Shown: piece after piece, positions 3,752-14,458 of the stretch
Position numbering within the stretch: position 1 is the stretch's first letter
Layout of the letters: every line of letters begins with the position of its first letter
Assembly: GCA_021848965.1 (NCBI GenBank)
Contig: JAJZTL010000001.1
Location: forward strand, 1,910 to 65,909
From: Pseudomonadota bacterium
Lineage (GTDB): Bacteria; Pseudomonadota; Gammaproteobacteria; Legionellales; Legionellaceae
Direction: 5' to 3'
Length of the DNA stretch: 64,000 bases
Notes under the pieces: generated by a model
What the model was told of the DNA's origin: nothing
What the model saw: only the letters and a program-made list of their open reading frames with translations
Databases searched by the model: none
Program-made: the position numbers and the translations under genes

Positions 3752-3921
3752 TATCTTTCCATTTTTTACCCGTTTTACTTTGAAGATAATTTTATACTGA
3801 AAACACCTTGAACGCCAAGAAAATTAAAGATATAAATTTTTTTATCTTAGTCTATTTGCTTCTAAATAAAACTATGATAATAATTGTTCTTCCAATTAAA
3901 TTAACTGAAGGTATCATTATT

Positions 3922-4260
3922 ATGGCGGAAAAGAAAAAAGCTGCGATTAAAGAAACTCAAACGCAAACACAAATTATTGGGCATATTGCAGAACAAGTTT
4001 CTCTCACAAGAAAGCAAGTAGGAACTATTTTTCAGGCTGTCGCAGAACTAGCAAGCCGACATATTTCCAAAAATGGTTCTGGCGAATTTAAGATTCCTCA
4101 TTTGGGCATTAAAATTATGAGAAAAACAAAGCCTGCAACCAAAAAGCGTAAAGGCATCAATCCAGCCACAGGAGCCGCCATCGAAATTGCAGCAAAACCT
4201 AAGCGTGATGTGGTTAAACTGGTTGCATTAAAAGCATTAAAAGACGTTTTAGAAAAGTAG
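3922..4260 (+). CDS. HU-family histone-like DNA-binding protein with Lys-rich arm
   Basis: The internal ATG at 3922 gives a 112-aa protein. HU fold signature: ...LTRKQVGTIFQAV...GEFKIPHLGIKIMRKTKP..GINPATGAAIEIAAKP. The track ORF 3808.. has an implausible hydrophobic leader. Confidence 0.85.
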   Translation: MAEKKKAAIKETQTQTQIIGHIAEQVSLTRKQVGTIFQAVAELASRHISKNGSGEFKIPHLGIKIMRKTKPATKKRKGINPATGAAIEIAAKPKRDVVKLVALKALKDVLEK

Positions 4261-4280: not shown

Positions 4281-4321
4281 TCTCCCCTGCCCCCCCTTTG
4301 TTAAAGGGGGGCAGGGGGGAT
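4281..4321 (+). terminator. G/C-rich palindromic element acting as probable intrinsic terminator of the HU gene
   Basis: TCTCCCCTGCCCCCCCTTT-GTT-AAAGGGGGGCAGGGGGGA followed by TTTT, 20 nt after the stop codon. Same family as 10108-10150. Confidence 0.6.
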
Positions 4322-4337
4322 TTTACATCTCATCATC

Positions 4338-5462
4338 ATGAACATCATTAATCTCACGAAACAGCTCATTCAATTTCCGTCTATCACGCCAGATGATGCA
4401 GGCTGCCAAGAGTTTATCGCTCAAATTTTAACCAAAATTGGATTTTCTATACAGCATTGGCCATGCAATAAAGTAAAAAATTTATGGGCAAGATACGGTT
4501 CTGAAGAACCACTATTTGTATTTGCAGGACATACCGACGTTGTTCCCACAGGTGATTTATCCTCGTGGGCATCACCGCCTTTTGAACCGGCAATCCGAGA
4601 TAATTTTCTTTTTGGACGTGGTGCTTGTGATATGAAGGGCGGATTAGCAGCCATGCTGGTTGCAACCAAAGCTTTTTTACAAAAAAAACCTAACCTCAAA
4701 GGCAGCATTGGTTTTCTCATTACCAGTGCAGAAGAAGGCGATGACTTTGCTGATGGCACGCCCTATGTCATGCAAAAGCTAAAAGATTTAAATCAACTAC
4801 CGCGTTACTGCATCGTCGGAGAACCTTCTTCGGAGAAAAATTTAGGTGATACGATAAAAATTGGACGACGAGGTTCTTTAACAGGCCATCTAAAAATTTT
4901 AGGCAAACAAGGACATGTAGCCTATCCGCAATATGCTGACAATCCGATTCATCGCTCCACTGCTTTTCTTCATGAATTAGCTCATACCGAATGGGATAAA
5001 GGCAATGAGTTTTTCCCGCCCACCAGCTTACAAATCACTCAAATTTTAGCGAACTCTGGCGGCAACAACGTCATTCCAGGAGAATTAAAAATCGTTTTCA
5101 ATTTTCGCTATTCACCTGTATTAACTCACGAACAATTAGAAAAATCTGTTGAAAGTCTTTTAAAAAAACATGCTCTTACTTATGAGCTAACATGGAATCT
5201 CAGTGGTCAACCTTTTTTAACCCACCAAGGGCCTTTGCTCGAAGCAGCTAAACATGTTATTCAGCAAGTCTGCCAATTAAATCCTATTTTATCCACCAGT
5301 GGCGGAACCTCTGACGGTCGCTTTATTGCCCCTTATGGTGTCGATGTCATCGAGCTTGGTTTAATCAATAAAACCATTCATCAAATCAATGAATCTACTT
5401 CCATTGAATCATTACAGCAATTATGCATTGTGTATGAAAAATTGCTAGAAGCATTGATTTAA
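4338..5462 (+). CDS. dapE: Succinyl-diaminopimelate desuccinylase
   Basis: M20 peptidase motifs GHTDVVP, RGACDMKG, SAEEG, and typical DapE length of 374 aa. Confidence 0.9.
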   Translation: MNIINLTKQLIQFPSITPDDAGCQEFIAQILTKIGFSIQHWPCNKVKNLWARYGSEEPLFVFAGHTDVVPTGDLSSWASPPFEPAIRDNFLFGRGACDMKGGLAAMLVATKAFLQKKPNLKGSIGFLITSAEEGDDFADGTPYVMQKLKDLNQLPRYCIVGEPSSEKNLGDTIKIGRRGSLTGHLKILGKQGHVAYPQYADNPIHRSTAFLHELAHTEWDKGNEFFPPTSLQITQILANSGGNNVIPGELKIVFNFRYSPVLTHEQLEKSVESLLKKHALTYELTWNLSGQPFLTHQGPLLEAAKHVIQQVCQLNPILSTSGGTSDGRFIAPYGVDVIELGLINKTIHQINESTSIESLQQLCIVYEKLLEALI

Positions 5463-5539
5463 TTAGCCTGAGATTGCTATAGCAAAGTTATTTTGATAGC
5501 ATCATTAAAATATAATTAATTTTGTACCCAAGGTCTACT

Positions 5540-8500
5540 ATGAGCTCTTTTTCATCTAACCTACCTTTATCCTCAGCACAAAAACGAATTTGGTTTGAAA
5601 GTCTAAACACAAAATCATTACAGAATCATGTGATGTTAGCCTACGAACTAAAAGGCCATTTATCTATTCCAGCTTTACAGCAATCATTGATGCAATTGGT
5701 TACAGAAAACGACATTTTTCGAACAACTATATTTAGTGCTGGAAAAAATTTAGAACGCATCGTACACGAACATATGAGCGTTGATTTAAAATGCCTGCCT
5801 GTTGACCCGGATAATGAGCTCTATCCAACGATACAACATTTAATGGAAAAACCATTTAATGTATCAACAGGACCTTTATTCCGTTTTGCTCTATTACAAA
5901 GATCAGAAGACAGCTTTATTTTTTTGTTAATATTTCACCCATTGATTATCAATACATGTGAAATGAAAAAAGTCATACGAGAAATTTCTCATCATTATGA
6001 AAAATTTTTACAGGGACAAACTGTCATTATTGAAGAAAAGCTATCTTACAGTGAATTAGTGACGTATGAAAAACATTATCGAACACAAAGCCTTTATCGA
6101 GATACTATACGCCATTGGAGCAATCGCATAAAGGATAAACAATATCATCTTGATTTAACAAAACTACCCGAAACAGAAGAAATCGCCTCTCAAGTTCGAG
6201 CAAAACGTCTGACTTTAGGAACAACATTTCATACCAAACTGCAATTATTTTGTGAGCAATTTTCTTGCACACCTGAGCATGTTTTTTTATCCACATTGCA
6301 AGCATTGTTATACCGATATAGCGACACACAGGATATTGTGATTAACCGTGCGGAAGAAATTATTTACCAAGAAAATTGGAAAGATTTAATAGGACCAATG
6401 GAAAACATTCTGCCTTGGAATGTTCGTATTACCGAAACAATGACTTTTATCGAATTGTTAAAACAAAACCAGCAATATGATCTTTTTCAAAAATATTACC
6501 CACATGCGCATACGGCAGATGTTGTACGTGCAGTACGAACACGTTTTAACCATCATTTTGATGGCTTCTTTTCCAATGTGTCATTTGAAAAAGAGACCAT
6601 ACCTTATCACGAATTAGTCTTATCCAATGTGTCAGTTAAAGTATTGCCACAGTATATTTCACGTACTCGACAAGATGACTTACAAGTCTTTTATGATGAA
6701 CATAACGGTTGCTTTTATCTTTCTTTTGATTATGCACCCACGCTCTCTGCTCGCTCGGTACAAAATTTTGTTACACATTATGAACTTTTATTAGAAGAAT
6801 TATTAAAAGATCCTAATCAACTACTTTCGAGGGTAAAATTTTTGCCATTTAGCGAGGAAAAACCTGCAGCGAGTTTTATCCCCACCCGCACTATTATTGA
6901 AGATTTTGAACAGGCCGTTGAACAATATCCTCAACATATCGCTCTTATCGACGAAAATACTTCTCTCACTTATACCCAGCTCAACCAAGCGGCCAATCAA
7001 TTAGCCCACTATCTCCAAGCAAAAAAAGTAAAACCCAATGATTACATCGGATTATCCATCGGGCGCCATGTCAATATGGTAGTAGCCATATTCGGTATTC
7101 TCAAGGCAGGGGCTGCCTATGTACCTCTTGACCCCAGCTATCCCAAAGAACGTTTAGATTTTATGAAACAAGACACCCAAATGACACTTGTTATCACCGA
7201 AGAAACGTTTCAAGACATTCAACTTTCGTCTTTTTCCACCCAAAATCTAATCACCAAACCTCAATTAGACGACTTAGCTTATGTGATTTATACCTCCGGC
7301 TCCACCGGCAAACCCAAAGGCGTACTCGTCCCCCATCGCGGACTACCCAACTTAGCGCATTACCAAAATCAACTTTTCTCTATTCACCCCACAACGCGTT
7401 GTTTGCAAACAGGCTCTATTAATTTTGACATTTCCGCACTAGAAATCTATGGTCCATTAATTGCTGGCGCCACTTTATATATTGCCACACATGAACAACG
7501 TACCACACCGTTACAATTACAAGAATACATTATTCAACACCACATTCAAGTTCTTGCCATCACACCTTCCGTATTGTCTCATTTTACATGGAAAGACATG
7601 CCCGAACTATTAACGATCGCAGCTTGTGGCGAAGCTTGTGACCAAAAGCTCATGGACTTCTGGGCACATAACAGAACGTTTATCAATGGCTACGGACCTA
7701 CTGAAATTACTATTATTTCTCATTTTAAAAAATACGACACCCATACATTATTTAACAATTTAGGCCAAACAATTCCTCATGTATACGCTTTTATTTTAGA
7801 CACCCATAAAAATCTTCTTCCCGACGGTGTCCCCGGAGAAATGTTTATCGGTGGCATCGGCGTTACCAAAGGTTATCTCAATCTTTCGGAACAAACCCAA
7901 GAAAAATTTATCCCGAGCCCTTTTCATCCCGATGAGACACTTTATCGCACTAATGATCTTGCTTATCGTTTAGAAAATGGTGATTTTATTTATATAGGCC
8001 GCAATGACACTCAAATCAAAATTCGTGGATTACGTGTAGAACTCGGTGAAATTGAGGAAAAAATCAAAACGTATCCAGCTATTGAACGTGTATTAGTACG
8101 TGTTCTTTCACATGAAACCATTGGAAAAGTCTTAGTTGCCTATTTTATTCAGGATATGTTTAAAAAACCGATTGAAGAAAATACATTGCGTCATTATTTA
8201 AAAGCTCTTTTACCCGAACACATGCTACCGTCTTATTTCATCCGCGTACCCCATTTCCCAATGATGCGTAATGGTAAAATTGATTATCAAGCACTACCTA
8301 ATCCTTTTATCACCTCTGAATATTTTGACCATGAACAGTGTAGTAAGATTGAACAGGTGCTGATTCAAATTTTTGCAGAATTATTTCATCTGGACGAAAA
8401 AGCACTTTCACTGGATCACGATTTTTTTGCGTTGGGCGGTCACTCTCTATTGGCGACGCAACTGATTTCACGAACTAAACAACAATTAAAATTATTATTG

Positions 8501-11500
8501 CCCGTCGCAAAAGTATTTGAATTGCGGACAATTAAGAAGCTAGCCGAATATTTATCAACTTTGAATAATCAAGCAACGGAAGATTTTCCTTTACTGCATA
8601 AGCCTAGCAATGAAAAAGTTCCCCTATCTTTGGCACAGCAAGAGATGTGGTTTCTTTATCAGTGGGATAAATCATCTCCCGTATCTAATAATCCTTTTTT
8701 AATCGGTCTTAAACAAGTTAATGCTGATATTTTAATACGCGCACTGCATTATCTTATTCAGCAAAATTCTATTTTTCGTACGGTTTTTAAAGATTCTGAT
8801 CAAGAACTCCGTCAAATTGTTTTAGAGAAAGTGAAGGCAGATATTCCCTTTTATGAGTCTTTTGATGATTTTTCATCTAAATTAACACAGTGGGATCACA
8901 CACCCTTTGATTTAAGGCTATTTCCTTTATTTCGCTTTGCAGTTTCTTTACAAAATGACATAACCTATCTGTATTGTAATATTCATCATATTATTTTTGA
9001 CGGATGGTCCTTAAAAATATTGATGCAGCAATTAGGAAAAGTGTACGAAGCACTGGAACAAACATTGCCCCTTCCTATTCTCACCACATCTTATAACTTC
9101 GGCGATTTTGCGTATTCGGAGTCGCAATGGATAAAAGACAATAAGTTAGTCAAACAAAAAGAATTTTGGCAATCATTTTTACAAGGCGCTGAACCAACAC
9201 TCAATTTACCCACAGACTTTCCCTATCCTAAAACGCAAAACTATGCAGGAGATACAGTCGAAATAATCATTCCTAAGGCACTCACGGATAGCTTAAGAGC
9301 ACTTGCTTTAGAAAATAAAACAACATTATTTGCGGTTTTATTAACGGCTTATTTTATTCTGCTTTATCGTTATACTAAACAAACAGATATTATCGTAGGA
9401 ACCCCCATTGCTGGGCGCCGTTTACCTGAGCTTGAACCACTGATAGGTTTTTTTGCTCATATATCACTTTACCGCCAGCAGCTCTCCCCCAAAAAAATAT
9501 TTACAGAATTGCTTGGCACTGTGCACCAAAATGCGTGTGATGTGGCAGAAAATCAAGCGATTGCACCCAACCAAATCCTAGAAGCACTGGATATTTATGT
9601 TGATCCGAGCCAAAATTCTTTATTTCAAGTAATGTTTAGTTTACAAACAGGACATCAGCTGGAAGGCCATTTATCTGGTAAATCACATCATTATCATATT
9701 ACCGAACGCCACCAAAAAACGACAAAATTTGATGTTTACTTATTTTTGAATGAAATGTTTAATGGTGAACTAAAAGGTGTTGTAAAATATCGTACGGATT
9801 TATTTACCCAACTTAGCATGCAACATTTATGTACCCATTACCTCAATGTGCTGCAAGCCATTGTTGAAAATGCGAATGCTTCTATTGCAGATTTAACCTT
9901 TCTTTCTTATGAGGAATATCAATTATTGGTAAACACTTGGCCTTATGGGGAGAAACGTCCCTTACCTGAAAAAACAGTATTGGAAATGATAAAAGACGTT
10001 GTCCAGCAAGATCCTGAACTTCCCGCACTGGTCTTTCAAAAACAATCGTTAACCTATGCAGCGTTTTGGGAAAGGGTAGAAAATTTAGCCCGTGCTATTC
10101 AGAGAAATATCCCCCCTGCCCCCTCCTTTACAAAGGGGGAGCAGGGGGGAGGTTGTATTCAGACACCCATTATTGGCATTCTTATGCCTCGTGGTTTTGA
10201 TATGATTATTGCCATGTGCGCCATATGGAAAGCAGGCGGAGCTTATTTACCTTTAGATGCGGATTATCCTGAAGAACGTTCACGCTATATGCTGGATAAT
10301 TCAGGAGCAAAAATTATTATCAGTGTGTCGTTATTAGCAGAGAAACAAAAAGTGTATCTCGATAATGATATTACTTTTATACAAGCTGATCTTCCCCTCT
10401 CCCCAATGAAAGGGAAAGAAGAGATAACAGGCACGCTCTCTCCAAAAAGAGAGAATAAAATGAGTGATCTTGCCTACATTATCTACACCTCTGGCTCAAC
10501 AGGAAATCCCAAAGGCGTCATGTTGCAACATGGTGGGTTGAGTAATCTGGTGAAAGGATTACATGAAGCTTATTGTATGAAAAAAGGAATGAATGTGTTA
10601 CAACTGGTATCCATTAATTTTGATATTTCAGTCAGCGATATTTTTCCAGCATTATCCATTGGTGCCTGTCTTCATCTTGCAACGAATGAATTGAGAGTAT
10701 CTGCTGTAGATATACAAAATTATATTGTTACGCATGGTATACAACTCGTTGAGATTGTACCGGCCCTACTAGAAAGTTTTGAAAAGAAACCTTTGCCTTG
10801 TCTAGAAACTATTGCAACCGGAGGAGATTTTTGTGAGCCCAATGTAATGCGCTATTGGGGTAACCAATGCCGCTTAGTGAATATCTATGGTCCAACGGAA
10901 GTGACAGTAATTTCCTCCTCAAAATGCTATGTTGAAGGCGAATCTTTTCATAATATTGGACGTCCCTTACCGAATACTGAAACCTATATTCTTGATGAAG
11001 ATTTTTATCCTGTTCCTACAGGTGTAATTGGCGAAATGTTTATTGGTGGGCAAGGAGTGGCTCGAGGCTATTTGAATCGTGAAGCATTAACACTCGAACG
11101 TTTTGTTGTGCACCCATTTTCTGATGATCCTAACGCACGTTTGTACCGTACAGGAGATTATGCGCGATGGTTACCAAATGGTGATATTGAAATTGTAGGA
11201 CGCATTGATAATCAGGTTAAAATTCGAGGTTATCGTATTGAAATAGGCGAAATAGAAACCTTATTAAATGCCTATCCAGGTATTAAACAAGTTGCCGTCA
11301 TTACACAAAAATCGCAACAATTGTTATTAGCTTATTTTTCTGTAACCGAAGAAGTTGATATCCAGGAGAATGCATTATATCGTTATTTATCCGCAAAGCT
11401 TCCTGAATATATGATTCCCTCCAGTTTTATTAAACTCGATACACTACCACTAAATTTAAGCGGGAAAGTTGATCGTAAAACCTTGCAAGCCAAAGAATTT

Positions 11501-12904
11501 CAATTGACCAATAAGATAAAAACATTAATAGCACCACGCAATGAAATTGAACGCCGATTATGGGAAATTTGGAAAGAAGTACTCAAAACAGATCAAATTA
11601 GTGTCGAAGATTCTTTTTTTGAATTGGGCGGACACTCATTAGCCGCGTTACGATTTTCATCTCGTTTTCAAGCATCTTATTCCATGAGCTGCCCGATTTC
11701 TATGATTTTTAAATACAAAACAATTGCCGCATTAGCTGAAGCAATACTCAAAGAATCTCCTGAACTGCATAATGATATAAATATACAGTTAATGCATAAG
11801 GATATTCAACGTGCGAAAGCAATAGTAGAACCTATTAAGGGTGACATAAAAGCTCTACCAGAATGTATTTTGATTACAGGAGCACACGGCTTTTTGGGTG
11901 CACATCTATTACAGACTTTATTGTCAGAAACAACAGCTTCTATCATCTGCATCGTTCGCGCAGACTCTCCCGAAGCTCTACAGTTAAAAGTAAAAAAAGA
12001 TTTAGCGCGCTTTAATCTTGAAAAGCTTTCAGAGCATCCTCGTGTTGAATGGATGATAGGTGATTTAAGCCAACCCATGCTTGGATTACAAGAAAATGAA
12101 TACATCCATTTATGTCAGGTAGTTGATAGCATTTATCATTCTGGAGCGTGGGTAAATCATGTTTTGACTTATGAAAATTTACGCGCAACCAATGTGGAAA
12201 GCACATTAACATTCTTGCACATGGCTGCACTCTCTCGCCCTAAAGTGATTAATTATATTTCTACCGCGAATGTAAGCGATGTTATTGATAATCCAAACGC
12301 CTTAAATCAAGCACCAGGATATGTGCAAACTAAATGTGTCAGTGAAATGATTTTGCTTGAAGCAGAAAAAAAAGGATTTAATGTGCACATTTTTAGAATG
12401 GGTAATATTGCTGGACACTCACAAACAGGCGTTTGTGTCGCAGAAAATAATCATTCTTTGTCGGTAATCAAATCTTGCATTGAACTTGGAATTGCACCTG
12501 ACTGGACATTTCCAACAGAAATGATGCCGGTGGATCTTTTAAGCTTGGCCATTGTTCGTGCCTCATTGTGTACAAAATGCACCAGAATCCTGTGGAAATT
12601 GCATAATATTTATGCCCTTTCTTGGAAAGATTATATCCAGTATTTAAATACACTGGGATTTAACATAAAAATAGTGCCCTTAGAACAATGGAAAAACATA
12701 ATAAACCATATTGATGAAAGTAATGCCTTATTTCCTTTTAAAAGTTTTTATGTGAACGCAACATCAGAAAACGTATCGGACATGTTCACTGAGCAAAAAG
12801 GAATATTAGATGAAATTGATTTAGCATATCCACAAGATTATGCGGCAATGGTAAAACTATATTGGACATATTTAAAAGAAAGCGGATTTATACCCAAACA
12901 ATAA
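5540..12904 (+). CDS. Bimodular non-ribosomal peptide synthetase, C*-A-T-C-A-T-R (terminal thioester reductase)
   Basis: Motifs occur in order. C1: LSSAQKRIWF, with a degenerate His motif FHPLIIN at 5933-5953. A1: LAYVIYTSGSTGKPKG, NGYGPTE, YRTNDL, GRNDTQIKIRG, NGKID. T1: FFALGGHS, Ser 8444-8446. C2: HHIIFDG 8984-9004. A2: LAYIIYTSGSTGNPKG, NIYGPTE, YRTGDY, GRIDNQVKIRG, SGKVD. T2: FFELGGHS, Ser 11636-11638. R: TGAHGFLG 11876-11899, YVQTK. The track start 5522 is TTG, so ATG 5540 is preferred. Confidence 0.95.
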   Translation: MSSFSSNLPLSSAQKRIWFESLNTKSLQNHVMLAYELKGHLSIPALQQSLMQLVTENDIFRTTIFSAGKNLERIVHEHMSVDLKCLPVDPDNELYPTIQHLMEKPFNVSTGPLFRFALLQRSEDSFIFLLIFHPLIINTCEMKKVIREISHHYEKFLQGQTVIIEEKLSYSELVTYEKHYRTQSLYRDTIRHWSNRIKDKQYHLDLTKLPETEEIASQVRAKRLTLGTTFHTKLQLFCEQFSCTPEHVFLSTLQALLYRYSDTQDIVINRAEEIIYQENWKDLIGPMENILPWNVRITETMTFIELLKQNQQYDLFQKYYPHAHTADVVRAVRTRFNHHFDGFFSNVSFEKETIPYHELVLSNVSVKVLPQYISRTRQDDLQVFYDEHNGCFYLSFDYAPTLSARSVQNFVTHYELLLEELLKDPNQLLSRVKFLPFSEEKPAASFIPTRTIIEDFEQAVEQYPQHIALIDENTSLTYTQLNQAANQLAHYLQAKKVKPNDYIGLSIGRHVNMVVAIFGILKAGAAYVPLDPSYPKERLDFMKQDTQMTLVITEETFQDIQLSSFSTQNLITKPQLDDLAYVIYTSGSTGKPKGVLVPHRGLPNLAHYQNQLFSIHPTTRCLQTGSINFDISALEIYGPLIAGATLYIATHEQRTTPLQLQEYIIQHHIQVLAITPSVLSHFTWKDMPELLTIAACGEACDQKLMDFWAHNRTFINGYGPTEITIISHFKKYDTHTLFNNLGQTIPHVYAFILDTHKNLLPDGVPGEMFIGGIGVTKGYLNLSEQTQEKFIPSPFHPDETLYRTNDLAYRLENGDFIYIGRNDTQIKIRGLRVELGEIEEKIKTYPAIERVLVRVLSHETIGKVLVAYFIQDMFKKPIEENTLRHYLKALLPEHMLPSYFIRVPHFPMMRNGKIDYQALPNPFITSEYFDHEQCSKIEQVLIQIFAELFHLDEKALSLDHDFFALGGHSLLATQLISRTKQQLKLLLPVAKVFELRTIKKLAEYLSTLNNQATEDFPLLHKPSNEKVPLSLAQQEMWFLYQWDKSSPVSNNPFLIGLKQVNADILIRALHYLIQQNSIFRTVFKDSDQELRQIVLEKVKADIPFYESFDDFSSKLTQWDHTPFDLRLFPLFRFAVSLQNDITYLYCNIHHIIFDGWSLKILMQQLGKVYEALEQTLPLPILTTSYNFGDFAYSESQWIKDNKLVKQKEFWQSFLQGAEPTLNLPTDFPYPKTQNYAGDTVEIIIPKALTDSLRALALENKTTLFAVLLTAYFILLYRYTKQTDIIVGTPIAGRRLPELEPLIGFFAHISLYRQQLSPKKIFTELLGTVHQNACDVAENQAIAPNQILEALDIYVDPSQNSLFQVMFSLQTGHQLEGHLSGKSHHYHITERHQKTTKFDVYLFLNEMFNGELKGVVKYRTDLFTQLSMQHLCTHYLNVLQAIVENANASIADLTFLSYEEYQLLVNTWPYGEKRPLPEKTVLEMIKDVVQQDPELPALVFQKQSLTYAAFWERVENLARAIQRNIPPAPSFTKGEQGGGCIQTPIIGILMPRGFDMIIAMCAIWKAGGAYLPLDADYPEERSRYMLDNSGAKIIISVSLLAEKQKVYLDNDITFIQADLPLSPMKGKEEITGTLSPKRENKMSDLAYIIYTSGSTGNPKGVMLQHGGLSNLVKGLHEAYCMKKGMNVLQLVSINFDISVSDIFPALSIGACLHLATNELRVSAVDIQNYIVTHGIQLVEIVPALLESFEKKPLPCLETIATGGDFCEPNVMRYWGNQCRLVNIYGPTEVTVISSSKCYVEGESFHNIGRPLPNTETYILDEDFYPVPTGVIGEMFIGGQGVARGYLNREALTLERFVVHPFSDDPNARLYRTGDYARWLPNGDIEIVGRIDNQVKIRGYRIEIGEIETLLNAYPGIKQVAVITQKSQQLLLAYFSVTEEVDIQENALYRYLSAKLPEYMIPSSFIKLDTLPLNLSGKVDRKTLQAKEFQLTNKIKTLIAPRNEIERRLWEIWKEVLKTDQISVEDSFFELGGHSLAALRFSSRFQASYSMSCPISMIFKYKTIAALAEAILKESPELHNDINIQLMHKDIQRAKAIVEPIKGDIKALPECILITGAHGFLGAHLLQTLLSETTASIICIVRADSPEALQLKVKKDLARFNLEKLSEHPRVEWMIGDLSQPMLGLQENEYIHLCQVVDSIYHSGAWVNHVLTYENLRATNVESTLTFLHMAALSRPKVINYISTANVSDVIDNPNALNQAPGYVQTKCVSEMILLEAEKKGFNVHIFRMGNIAGHSQTGVCVAENNHSLSVIKSCIELGIAPDWTFPTEMMPVDLLSLAIVRASLCTKCTRILWKLHNIYALSWKDYIQYLNTLGFNIKIVPLEQWKNIINHIDESNALFPFKSFYVNATSENVSDMFTEQKGILDEIDLAYPQDYAAMVKLYWTYLKESGFIPKQ
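10108..10150. repeat. In-frame copy of the G/C-rich palindromic element inside NRPS A2 domain
   Basis: ATCCCCCCTGCCCCCTCCTTT-ACA-AAGGGGGAGCAGGGGGGAG, translated as IPPAPSFTKGEQGGG. Near-identical to 4281-4321. Confidence 0.75.
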
Positions 12905-12943: not shown

Positions 12944-14458
12944 TTAGGCTTCTTTCTTATTTTGACGATAACTAAAAGCCTCAGAAAGATTTTTGATGCT
13001 TATAGTATCTACACCATCTAAATCAGCTAATGTTCGAGCAACGCGTAAAATTCGATGATAGGATCTAGCTGAAAGTTTCAATCGTTGAATAGCCGTTTCA
13101 GCCAGTTCTAATTCTTTTTCACCTAATACACAATATTTTTCTAATGCTTTACCCGTTAAACGTGCATTATTTTTTCCTTGACGTTGTTCTTGGCATTTTT
13201 GTGCTGCGATAACACGTTGACGCACCTGTTCACTCGTTTCAGAGGGTAATACATCTTGAGTTGTTAGGGCTTCTTTTTTTAAAGCAGGAACATTAATAAA
13301 TAAATCAATTCTGTCCAGAAAAGGACCTGAAAGACGATTACGATAACTACGGATTTGTGCCGCAGAACAATGACAATCTTCCAATGGATTGCCCAAATGG
13401 CCGCAAGGACAAGGATTCATTGCACAAATTAGCTGAAATTGAGCGGGGTATTGTGCATGATGTGCAGCGCGAGCAATGGTAATATGTCCGGACTCCAGAG
13501 GTTCACGCAGTGTTTCTAAAGTTTTTCGGCTAAACTCTGGCAATTCGTCAAGAAATAATACTCCATGATGCGCTAATGAAATTTCACCTGGTTTCGGAGG
13601 ACTTCCACCACCCACTAAAGCAATAGATGAACTCGTGTGATGCGGCGTTCTAAAAGGACGTTGTTGCCATTGATTGGCATTAAATGCAATACCTCGAATA
13701 GATTGCAACGCTGCAAGTTCCAATGCTTCCTCAATTGATAATGGTGGTAGTAACGTCGGTAATCGCATAGCTAACATTGTTTTTCCTGTACCGGGTGGAC
13801 CTATCATTAAGAGACTATGTCCCCCTGCGGCAGAAATTTCCAGTGCTCTTTTCGCATGATATTGGCCACGCACCTCCGCTAAATCCACTGGATAATGGGA
13901 ATCTGATGAAAGCAGCATTGTCTCAAGTGCTTCCAACCTTTTTTTTCCCGAAAGATGCGCACATACGTCCAGCAAGTGATTCGCCCCATAATATTCACCC
14001 GTTTCCATCAATGCGGCTTCATGACTATTTTCCATTGGTAAAACACAAGCAGACTGACTTTTTTTGCATGCCAGTAACATAGGCAGCACCCCTTTAACAG
14101 AACGCAATGCTCCTGATAAAGTTAACTCGCCAATAAATTCATAATGATTAAATATTTCTTGAGAAACACAAAGCTGTTCCGATGCAATCAGAATAGCTAA
14201 CGCAATAGGTAGATCAAATCCACTACCAAATTTAGGCAAATCTGCAGGGCCTAAATTAATTGTAATGCGTCGAGGGGGAAACTCAAAATTACTATTAATA
14301 ATAGCACTTCGCACACGATCGGCACTTTCTTTGATTAAAGTTTCAGGTAAGCCGACAATAGAAAAACGAGGCAATCCATTAGAAACATGGGCTTCAACGG
14401 TAATGGGATGTGCTTGAATACCGACATTGGTTCGACTTTTTAAAATAGCGAGTGGCAT
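12944..14458 (-). CDS. comM: Mg-chelatase-like ATPase YifB/ComM
   Basis: N-terminal Lon-like domain (GLPRFSIVGLPE...FDLPIALAIL), Walker A GPPGTGKTM, FLDELPEF, Cys cluster CPCGHLG..CHC. Confidence 0.9.
   Translation of the reverse strand: MPLAILKSRTNVGIQAHPITVEAHVSNGLPRFSIVGLPETLIKESADRVRSAIINSNFEFPPRRITINLGPADLPKFGSGFDLPIALAILIASEQLCVSQEIFNHYEFIGELTLSGALRSVKGVLPMLLACKKSQSACVLPMENSHEAALMETGEYYGANHLLDVCAHLSGKKRLEALETMLLSSDSHYPVDLAEVRGQYHAKRALEISAAGGHSLLMIGPPGTGKTMLAMRLPTLLPPLSIEEALELAALQSIRGIAFNANQWQQRPFRTPHHTSSSIALVGGGSPPKPGEISLAHHGVLFLDELPEFSRKTLETLREPLESGHITIARAAHHAQYPAQFQLICAMNPCPCGHLGNPLEDCHCSAAQIRSYRNRLSGPFLDRIDLFINVPALKKEALTTQDVLPSETSEQVRQRVIAAQKCQEQRQGKNNARLTGKALEKYCVLGEKELELAETAIQRLKLSARSYHRILRVARTLADLDGVDTISIKNLSEAFSYRQNKKEA

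Follow-up and report, generated by a model that had tools for sequence, protein, structure and literature searches.

A reductase-terminated bimodular peptide synthetase of a Legionellaceae bacterium with a first condensation domain stripped of catalytic residues

Introduction

The pyrazinone core is ‘typically’ assembled by nonribosomal peptide synthetases (NRPSs) with the domain order C-A-T-C-A-T-R, that is, two modules of condensation (C), adenylation (A) and carrier (T) domains followed by a reductase (R), a statement for which the AusA papers and the Fischbach gut-microbiome work are cited (PMC10979478). AusA/PznA of Staphylococcus aureus, the synthetase of aureusimine (tyrvalin, phevalin), is likewise bimodular with a terminal thioester reductase, and it frees an unacylated dipeptide aldehyde that cyclises to the pyrazinone (PMC8210680). 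The same layout is found in NRPSs of gut Clostridia and in RupA of Ruminococcus (ruminopeptin), whose products, dipeptide aldehydes or pyrazinones, act as inhibitors of host cysteine proteases (PMC10979478, PMC12327764). In the bacterial family studied here, the NRPSs of Legionella clusters C and D release their products reductively, as an aldehyde or alcohol, and depend on a single Sfp-type phosphopantetheinyl transferase (PPTase) encoded elsewhere (PMC5126622; Tobias et al., 2016). The subject here is a further gene of this layout, located at 5540..12904 on the forward strand of a 64,000-nucleotide stretch of DNA (the window; positions 1,910 to 65,909 of contig JAJZTL010000001.1, assembly GCA_021848965.1) from an intracellular-type gammaproteobacterium of the Legionellaceae.

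The encoded NRPS, with its two modules and apparently dead first domain, differs from those of Legionella clusters C and D, which are monomodular and formylate or acylate. It differs from AusA in its A-domain codes and in its host, which is not a firmicute, and no ausB-like PPTase gene adjoins it. Some enzymes of the gut Clostridia and RupA type N-acylate through an active first C domain, whereas the first C domain here, termed C1, lacks the catalytic residues. A sequence-only reading of the gene, made by a model without database searches, had described it as an orphan bimodular NRPS with reductive release and a degenerate N-terminal C domain.

Results

Domain organisation of the NRPS

The open reading frame covers 5522..12904 (+) and, from the ATG at 5540 (AAGG lies 7 nt 5′ of it), encodes 2454 residues without a break over 7.4 kb. 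This translation is identical to that of a database protein, P0002, called from the same contig, and the G+C content along the gene (0.36-0.39) is like that of the remainder of the window. Pfam models identified two Condensation, two AMP-binding and two PP-binding domains followed by a C-terminal NAD_binding_4 domain, and the NCBIfam thioester reductase model TIGR01746 scored 238.9 bits against a cut-off of 213. The product of 5540..12904 therefore has the domain order C-A-T-C-A-T-R, or C*-A-T-C-A-T-R with its first domain marked as a pseudo-condensation domain. The Pfam and NCBIfam results agree with the layout that had been read from core motifs, and neither gives a different one. The architecture is canonical, and the gene belongs to the known class of reductase-terminated bimodular NRPSs.

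All domains are given on the forward strand. C1 occupies residues 3-444 (5546..6871; Pfam Condensation, 159 bits) and carries the C3 motif HPLIINT at residues 133-139 (5936-5956). It is followed by the adenylation domain A1 (residues 456-920, 6905..8299; Pfam AMP-binding 456-780 and core motifs) and the carrier T1 (residues 939-1005, 8354..8554; Pfam PP-binding, with GGHSL at residue 966, 8435-8449). The second module begins with C2 (residues 1021-1465, 8600..9934; Pfam Condensation 1025-1463, hmmsearch 373 bits), a canonical condensation domain whose motif HHIIFDG, located at residues 1149-1155 (8984-9004) and already noted as intact, is a complete HHxxxDG. A2 (residues about 1480-1985, 9977..11494; TIGR01733 1538-1920, AMP-binding_C 1904-1976) and T2 (residues about 2000-2075, 11537..11764; the second Pfam PP-binding domain, with GGHSL at residue 2030, 11627-11641) complete this module. 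The terminal thioester reductase R (residues 2110-2451, 11867..12892; PF07993 and TIGR01746 above cut-off) contains the motifs TGAHGFLG (residues 2113-2120, 11876-11899) and YVQTK (residues 2261-2265, 12320-12334), as is consistent with the predicted reductive release by a reductase of the short-chain dehydrogenase/reductase (SDR) type.

Catalytic residues lost from C1

Alignment by phmmer to solved C domains (8XJZ, Txo2, Txo1) and by hmmalign to a profile built from 120 C domains places H-P-L-I-I-N-T of C1 on H-H-x-x-x-D-G. The original reading, FHPLIIN, was thus one position out of register, while its substance, that the Asp and Gly are lost and one His is left, was correct. Of the two His residues, the first, which is non-catalytic, is retained, and Pro (Arg in four relatives) stands in place of the second; Asn replaces the Asp and Thr the Gly. 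In addition, C1 has lost the Arg at profile column 282, which is invariant in ordinary C domains. In VibH this Arg forms a salt bridge with the motif Asp, and exchange of the Asp for Asn is reported to have abolished the activity of a tyrocidine C domain.

The rarity of this combination was gauged in 1481 C-superfamily domains, comprising the homologs retrieved for this analysis and the domains of the organism's own genome. The second His, the Asp and the Arg of column 282 are all kept in 1022 of the 1028 internal C domains. All three are absent together in only seven of the 1481 domains, and these seven make up the C1 clade described below. Loss of the second His by itself is less rare at the N-terminus, where it affects 37 of 242 C domains (15%) as against 3 of 1028 internal ones (0.3%). 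N-terminal C domains without the second His fall into recurrent motif groups, among them HQIVGDF, seen in many NRPSs of Nostoc, and PALCAD, seen in others.

Judged by its sequence, C1 has lost its catalytic residues more completely than any other domain in the sample, and it is presumably catalytically inactive. With the second His, the Asp and the Arg all missing, the earlier view that it is not a normal starter-acylating C domain holds. One condition named as refuting that view was an intact catalytic motif elsewhere in C1. The only candidate for a displaced active site, NHHFDG at residues 337-342, aligns to motif C7 and lies in a loop with a pLDDT below 50; its equivalents are HHFNG in a paralog, NNHFDG in P0003 and DTHFDG in P0098, so that neither the first His nor the Asp is conserved, and the candidate was rejected.

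C1 is a maintained domain

The word ‘degenerate’, if taken to mean decaying, does not suit C1. An AlphaFold model of the domain (22-sequence alignment) has a pLDDT of 83.8 and a pTM of 0.83, and superposes with a TM-score of about 0.8 on all solved kinds of C domain, among them Txo2, SrfA-C, the RzmA starter domain and an X domain. Compared with its closest homolog (P0004, below), C1 is 60.7% identical over 445 residues without a gap; the corresponding values are 53.9% for C2, 56.5% for A2, 64.0% for R and 68.8% for A1, with the T domains higher. The ratio of non-synonymous to synonymous divergence (dN/dS, Nei-Gojobori) for this pair is about 0.18 in C1 and 0.11-0.17 in the other domains; a second pair from the family gives 0.105 for C1 and 0.066-0.106 elsewhere. 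With dS near saturation (pS 0.64-0.74) these values are rough, and dN is clearly far below dS. Overall, C1 is under purifying selection like the other domains, has a complete C fold and shows no decay.

The placement of C1 in a C-domain phylogeny, with subtype labels derived from architecture, could be settled in part. In a FastTree analysis the seven C1 domains are monophyletic with a support of 1.0 and a long stem (0.86); the next node, which would place the clade among LCL, DCL and starter domains, has a support of 0.0, and long-branch attraction is likely. Against the only starter (Cs) reference in the sample, the N-terminal C domain of the lichenysin-like P0114, C1 scores 38 bits, against a median of 79 bits for internal C domains. 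Like a Cs domain, C1 is the first domain of a first module, and an intact HHxxxDG is not present in it.

The C1 family

The closest homolog of the NRPS is P0004, a protein of 2507 residues that is 59% identical and is encoded on a contig (L011) of ‘uncultured Legionella sp. nbed11b18’. Of the 40 relatives searched, this metagenome-assembled genome alone is congeneric, and it alone gave a strong match. The P0004 gene occupies the same alr-dnaB-HU-dapE locus, and icmS lies close by. A paralog lies in the organism's own genome (contig C132:4704-15626, +); its C1 is 63% identical, with the motif HRLIINT, and the NRPS has at least four C domains or modules and ends at the contig end. Its neighbours, an M3 oligopeptidase gene and an AAA ATPase gene, are not biosynthetic. 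The other members of the clade are P0003, a protein with three C-A-T modules and a terminal R from a Logan assembly; P0098 (L021) and P0283 (L023), both C-A-T-C-A-T-R with the motif HPLILNR and from two Logan assemblies, on contigs of low G+C content (0.34-0.36); and P0230, with the motif HPIIVDR, whose gene adjoins an ankyrin-repeat gene. P0230 was the sole addition from a HMMER search of the whole library with C1, ranked by summed hits to many-C proteins, and two word-index searches with the C1 region gave no further members, nor did they bring up Staphylococcus AusA. Proteins outside the seven-member clade share about 30% identity with the window protein. All seven members conserve the first His and the Asn of motif C5.

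At the five family loci examined, no adjoining gene for an acyl ligase, an acyl carrier protein (ACP), fatty-acid functions, a P450 or other tailoring was found; a major facilitator superfamily transporter is encoded about 2 kb downstream at one of them. For its small size, the genome (2.26 Mb, 164 contigs) carries an unusually heavy NRPS load, with 25 C domains spread over at least 11 contigs. It encodes a single Sfp-type PPTase (230 residues, beside coaD on contig C37), in agreement with the pattern in Legionella (Tobias et al., 2016), and no MbtH was found in it. The description of the window NRPS as an orphan therefore stands as far as adjacent accessory genes go, and fails in view of a syntenic ortholog, a paralog in the same genome, the 25 C domains and a PPTase encoded elsewhere; the gene is an orphan only as a single-gene locus.

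Comparison with AusA and other systems

A comparison with AusA had been proposed, and it bears out the shared layout. In the NCBIfam AusA profile NF047350 (2373 positions) A1 starts at around position 410, and the roughly 400 positions ahead of it run collinear with the C1 of the family: residues 11-2425 of P0098 correspond to profile positions 4-2304, and P0230 aligns from position 21. For the window protein the alignment spans residues 276 to 2392 (profile positions 245 to 2318). The scores are 1189.6 bits for the window protein, 1158 for its ortholog, 1398 for P0098 and 1247 for P0230, all of them below the equivalog cut-off of 2500, so that no family member is an AusA ortholog. The R domain is likewise distant from the AusA reductase (E 2e-11). 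Its closest solved structure is the MxaA reductase (4U7W; E 6e-48 over 283 residues, including TGxxGxxG and YxxxK). MxaA, of the myxalamid pathway, belongs to a hybrid of polyketide synthase and NRPS, and its reductase carries out a four-electron reduction to an alcohol.

The X domain of Tcp12 (teicoplanin; PDB 4TX2) is another known relative with a C fold, a lost second His and a non-catalytic role, and the C1 model matches it with a TM-score of 0.82. It differs from C1 in its position in the last module, in its cluster-encoded P450 partners and in keeping the Asp, whereas C1 is N-terminal and has lost the Asp. The glycopeptide X-domain motif is HRxxxDD. The C1 clade has HP/HRxxxN(T/F/R) at an N-terminal position, and no P450 gene was found at the five family loci.

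Adenylation domains

The specificity codes were extracted at fixed offsets from the A4 Asp (0, 1, 4, 43, 64, 66, 87, 95 and 96), which, applied to GrsA, return the published Phe code DAWTIAAIC. The A4-A5 stretch is gapless relative to GrsA in both A domains, and the codes of the sequence-only reading, DILAACGIIK for A1 and DISEAGIVIK for A2, were reproduced; again, neither matches a known substrate. The nearest codes were tried and led to no assignment: DILQLGLIWK (Gly) shares about 4 of 9 positions with A1, and DVGEIGSIDK (Orn) shares about 4 of 9 with A2, including Glu278. Against Gly, the small residues at positions 278, 299, 301 and 322 of the A1 pocket suggest, weakly, a large hydrophobic side chain. 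A2 carries Glu278, which we take, as a weak reading, to be the feature seen in Orn-type codes.

The ortholog has the codes DIFVTCGMGK (A1) and DAKSDGTIIK (A2), the latter strongly unlike that of the window A2. Since the codes vary within the family, the products probably differ between species. P0098 and P0283 carry DALWMGGTFK in A1 (read by hand) and also DASTVAAVCK, which we take to be a Val-like code and the Tyr code, Val and Tyr being the AusA substrates; both proteins are collinear with the AusA profile from position 4 on, and they may be tyrvalin-type synthetases outside Staphylococcus.

The A3, A5, A7 and A8 motifs and the A10 Lys are present in both A domains of the window protein. The A7 motif of A1 (7943-7960) reads YRTNDL as against Y(R/K)TGD, with Asn in place of Gly and the Asp kept; the change is common to the ortholog and P0003 and does not occur in P0098.

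Genomic neighbourhood and in-frame inserts

The NRPS gene is surrounded by housekeeping genes. On its 5′ side are alr, dnaB, an HU-like gene and dapE, the last (4338..5462, +; NCBIfam equivalog NF009557, 525 bits) on the same strand and separated from the NRPS gene by a gap of 77 bp; this side of the locus is syntenic with the ortholog locus. On the 3′ side lies the convergent yifB/comM gene (12944..14458, -; Pfam Mg_chelatase, TIGR00368 630 bits), and beyond it a ubiK-like gene, nadA, two orphans and pdxH. Both flanking genes had been named correctly from the sequence. A scan for promoters and terminators gave a number of sites not above that in shuffled sequence.

The HU-like gene (3808-4260, +) encodes 150 residues, of which only 52-148 match Bac_DNA_binding, behind an N-terminal extension of 50 residues; an NCBIfam search at E 1e-10 gave no match. 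It is syntenic with an HU gene of 112 codons in the congener.

A G/C-rich palindrome (CCCCCCTGCCCCC...GGGGGAGCAGGGGGG) at about 10108-10153 of the window is read in frame as IPPAPSFTKGEQGGG, which forms a loop in A2, in a variable surface region; the same stretch also varies in the ortholog. A sister copy lies at 4281-4321, just 3′ of the HU-like gene, and weaker copies occur elsewhere in the genome (C132:9388-9414, inside the paralogous NRPS gene; C151:958-988; and on C148, C44, C53 and C11). The ortholog has another in-frame insert (...LVPARRRASTRLAPT...) twice, at residues of about 824-842 in A1 and 1661-1680 in A2, and both are missing from the window gene. Taken together, the inserts of the two genes indicate that in-frame insertion of repeats into NRPS genes seems to be recurrent in the genus.

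Discussion

The data are best accommodated, with a probability of about 0.58, if the window gene encodes a bimodular NRPS of the AusA/pyrazinone-synthetase type that is functional and works on its own, which would release an unacylated dipeptide and in which C1 would have a structural role. In such an enzyme A1 and A2 would load two L-amino acids on T1 and T2, the carriers having been phosphopantetheinylated in trans by the genome's single Sfp-type PPTase, and C2 would join the two amino acids. Using NAD(P)H, the SDR-type R domain would then cleave the dipeptidyl thioester reductively, freeing an aldehyde, or an alcohol if a second reduction follows. If its N-terminal amine is free, the aldehyde would undergo spontaneous cyclisation to a dihydropyrazinone, which would give rise to a pyrazinone. 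C1 would form no bond; like its counterpart in the AusA layout, it would be kept as the structural partner of A1 in a C-A platform. What we infer is that C1 is inactive and acts structurally, together with the kind of product; by analogy, the unacylated release by AusA is the best guide at hand to the product expected when the first C domain is dead.

Several observations weigh against this assignment. The N-terminal lobe of the window protein (residues 1-275) has no alignment to the AusA N-terminus and fits better on the internal C domain of the profile; the comparison with the AusA N-terminal domain is one of profile collinearity. The R domain is much nearer to MxaA than to AusA, so that a dipeptide alcohol, rather than a pyrazinone, may be formed. 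Neither A code corresponds to a known substrate, and the ortholog has a strongly divergent A2 code. Purifying selection on C1 would fit any retained function, not a structural one alone. Finally, activity is retained by some C domains after mutation of the second His, as reviewed in PMC10510592.

The last two points would also suit the possibility that C1 is an active, non-canonical starter domain, which would N-acylate the first residue from an acyl-CoA or acyl-ACP and so lead to a non-cyclising N-acyl dipeptide aldehyde of the stable protease-inhibitor type known from the gut Clostridia enzymes of this layout. Its N-terminal position, full C fold and selective constraint, the first His and C5 Asn kept throughout the clade, and the tolerance of some C domains for loss of the second His would all suit such a domain. 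N-acylated products are reportedly known for the C-A-T-C-A-T-R architecture from work of Guo et al. in 2017 and Schneider and Balskus in 2018. An N-acyl tail is also mentioned in PMC8210680. It is not the second His alone that is gone from C1, however, but also the Asp and the invariant Arg, whereas the bona fide lipo-starter P0114, to which C1 has so little similarity, keeps all three; nor is there an acyl ligase, ACP or fatty-acid gene beside any of the five family loci. An acylating C1 is thus considered unlikely. It is quite improbable that C1 is instead a dead, X-domain-like platform that brings a tailoring enzyme acting in trans, or some other protein, to the amino acid bound on T1. The motifs HRLIINT or HRMIVNF of three of the seven family members do recall the X-domain motif HRxxxDD, the fit to the teicoplanin X domain is good, and C1 is under selection despite having no catalytic residues; yet the model fits every C-domain subtype equally well, known X domains are found in the last module, and no tailoring gene accompanies the family loci examined.

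The remaining alternatives concern the enzyme as a whole. The many C domains on short contigs leave room for partner NRPSs, and an N-terminal C domain is often used as the acceptor end of a split assembly line; C1 in that role would be fed by another NRPS, and the product would be longer than a dipeptide. The residue losses, the isolation of the gene among housekeeping genes in both genomes and the presence of the same C1 at the N-terminus of paralogs that have three or more modules make this very improbable. That the gene is an inactive relic with no product is the kind of explanation that the missing C1 residues, the palindrome-encoded loop in A2 and the altered A7 motif of A1 might prompt; it is extremely improbable given an unbroken 7.4-kb reading frame, dN/dS values of 0.1-0.18 everywhere and catalytic motifs present in A1, A2, T1, T2, C2 and R, and the A2 loop stretch is variable in the ortholog as well.

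The published canonical architecture and the commonness of degenerate N-terminal C domains mean that the gene does not overturn current understanding. C1 does offer a natural test case for why NRPS initiation modules often keep a dead C domain, a question that matters for NRPS engineering. A further idea, rather unlikely at present, is that the C1 clade represents a C fold with a new job, either an unconventional acyl or group transfer or docking, in enzymes that supply Legionella-type intracellular bacteria with host-directed peptide aldehydes. Were this so, the aldehydes might, for example, inhibit vacuolar cysteine proteases, in parallel to the reported need for ausAB in the phagosomal escape of S. 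aureus. Elsewhere in bacteria, dipeptide aldehydes and pyrazinones serve as inhibitors of host cathepsins or as signals. If the predicted AusA-type chemistry of the window NRPS is correct, small-genome uncultured relatives of Legionella would make AusA-like dipeptide aldehydes or pyrazinones, and a lineage known chiefly for protein effectors would gain a small-molecule arm.

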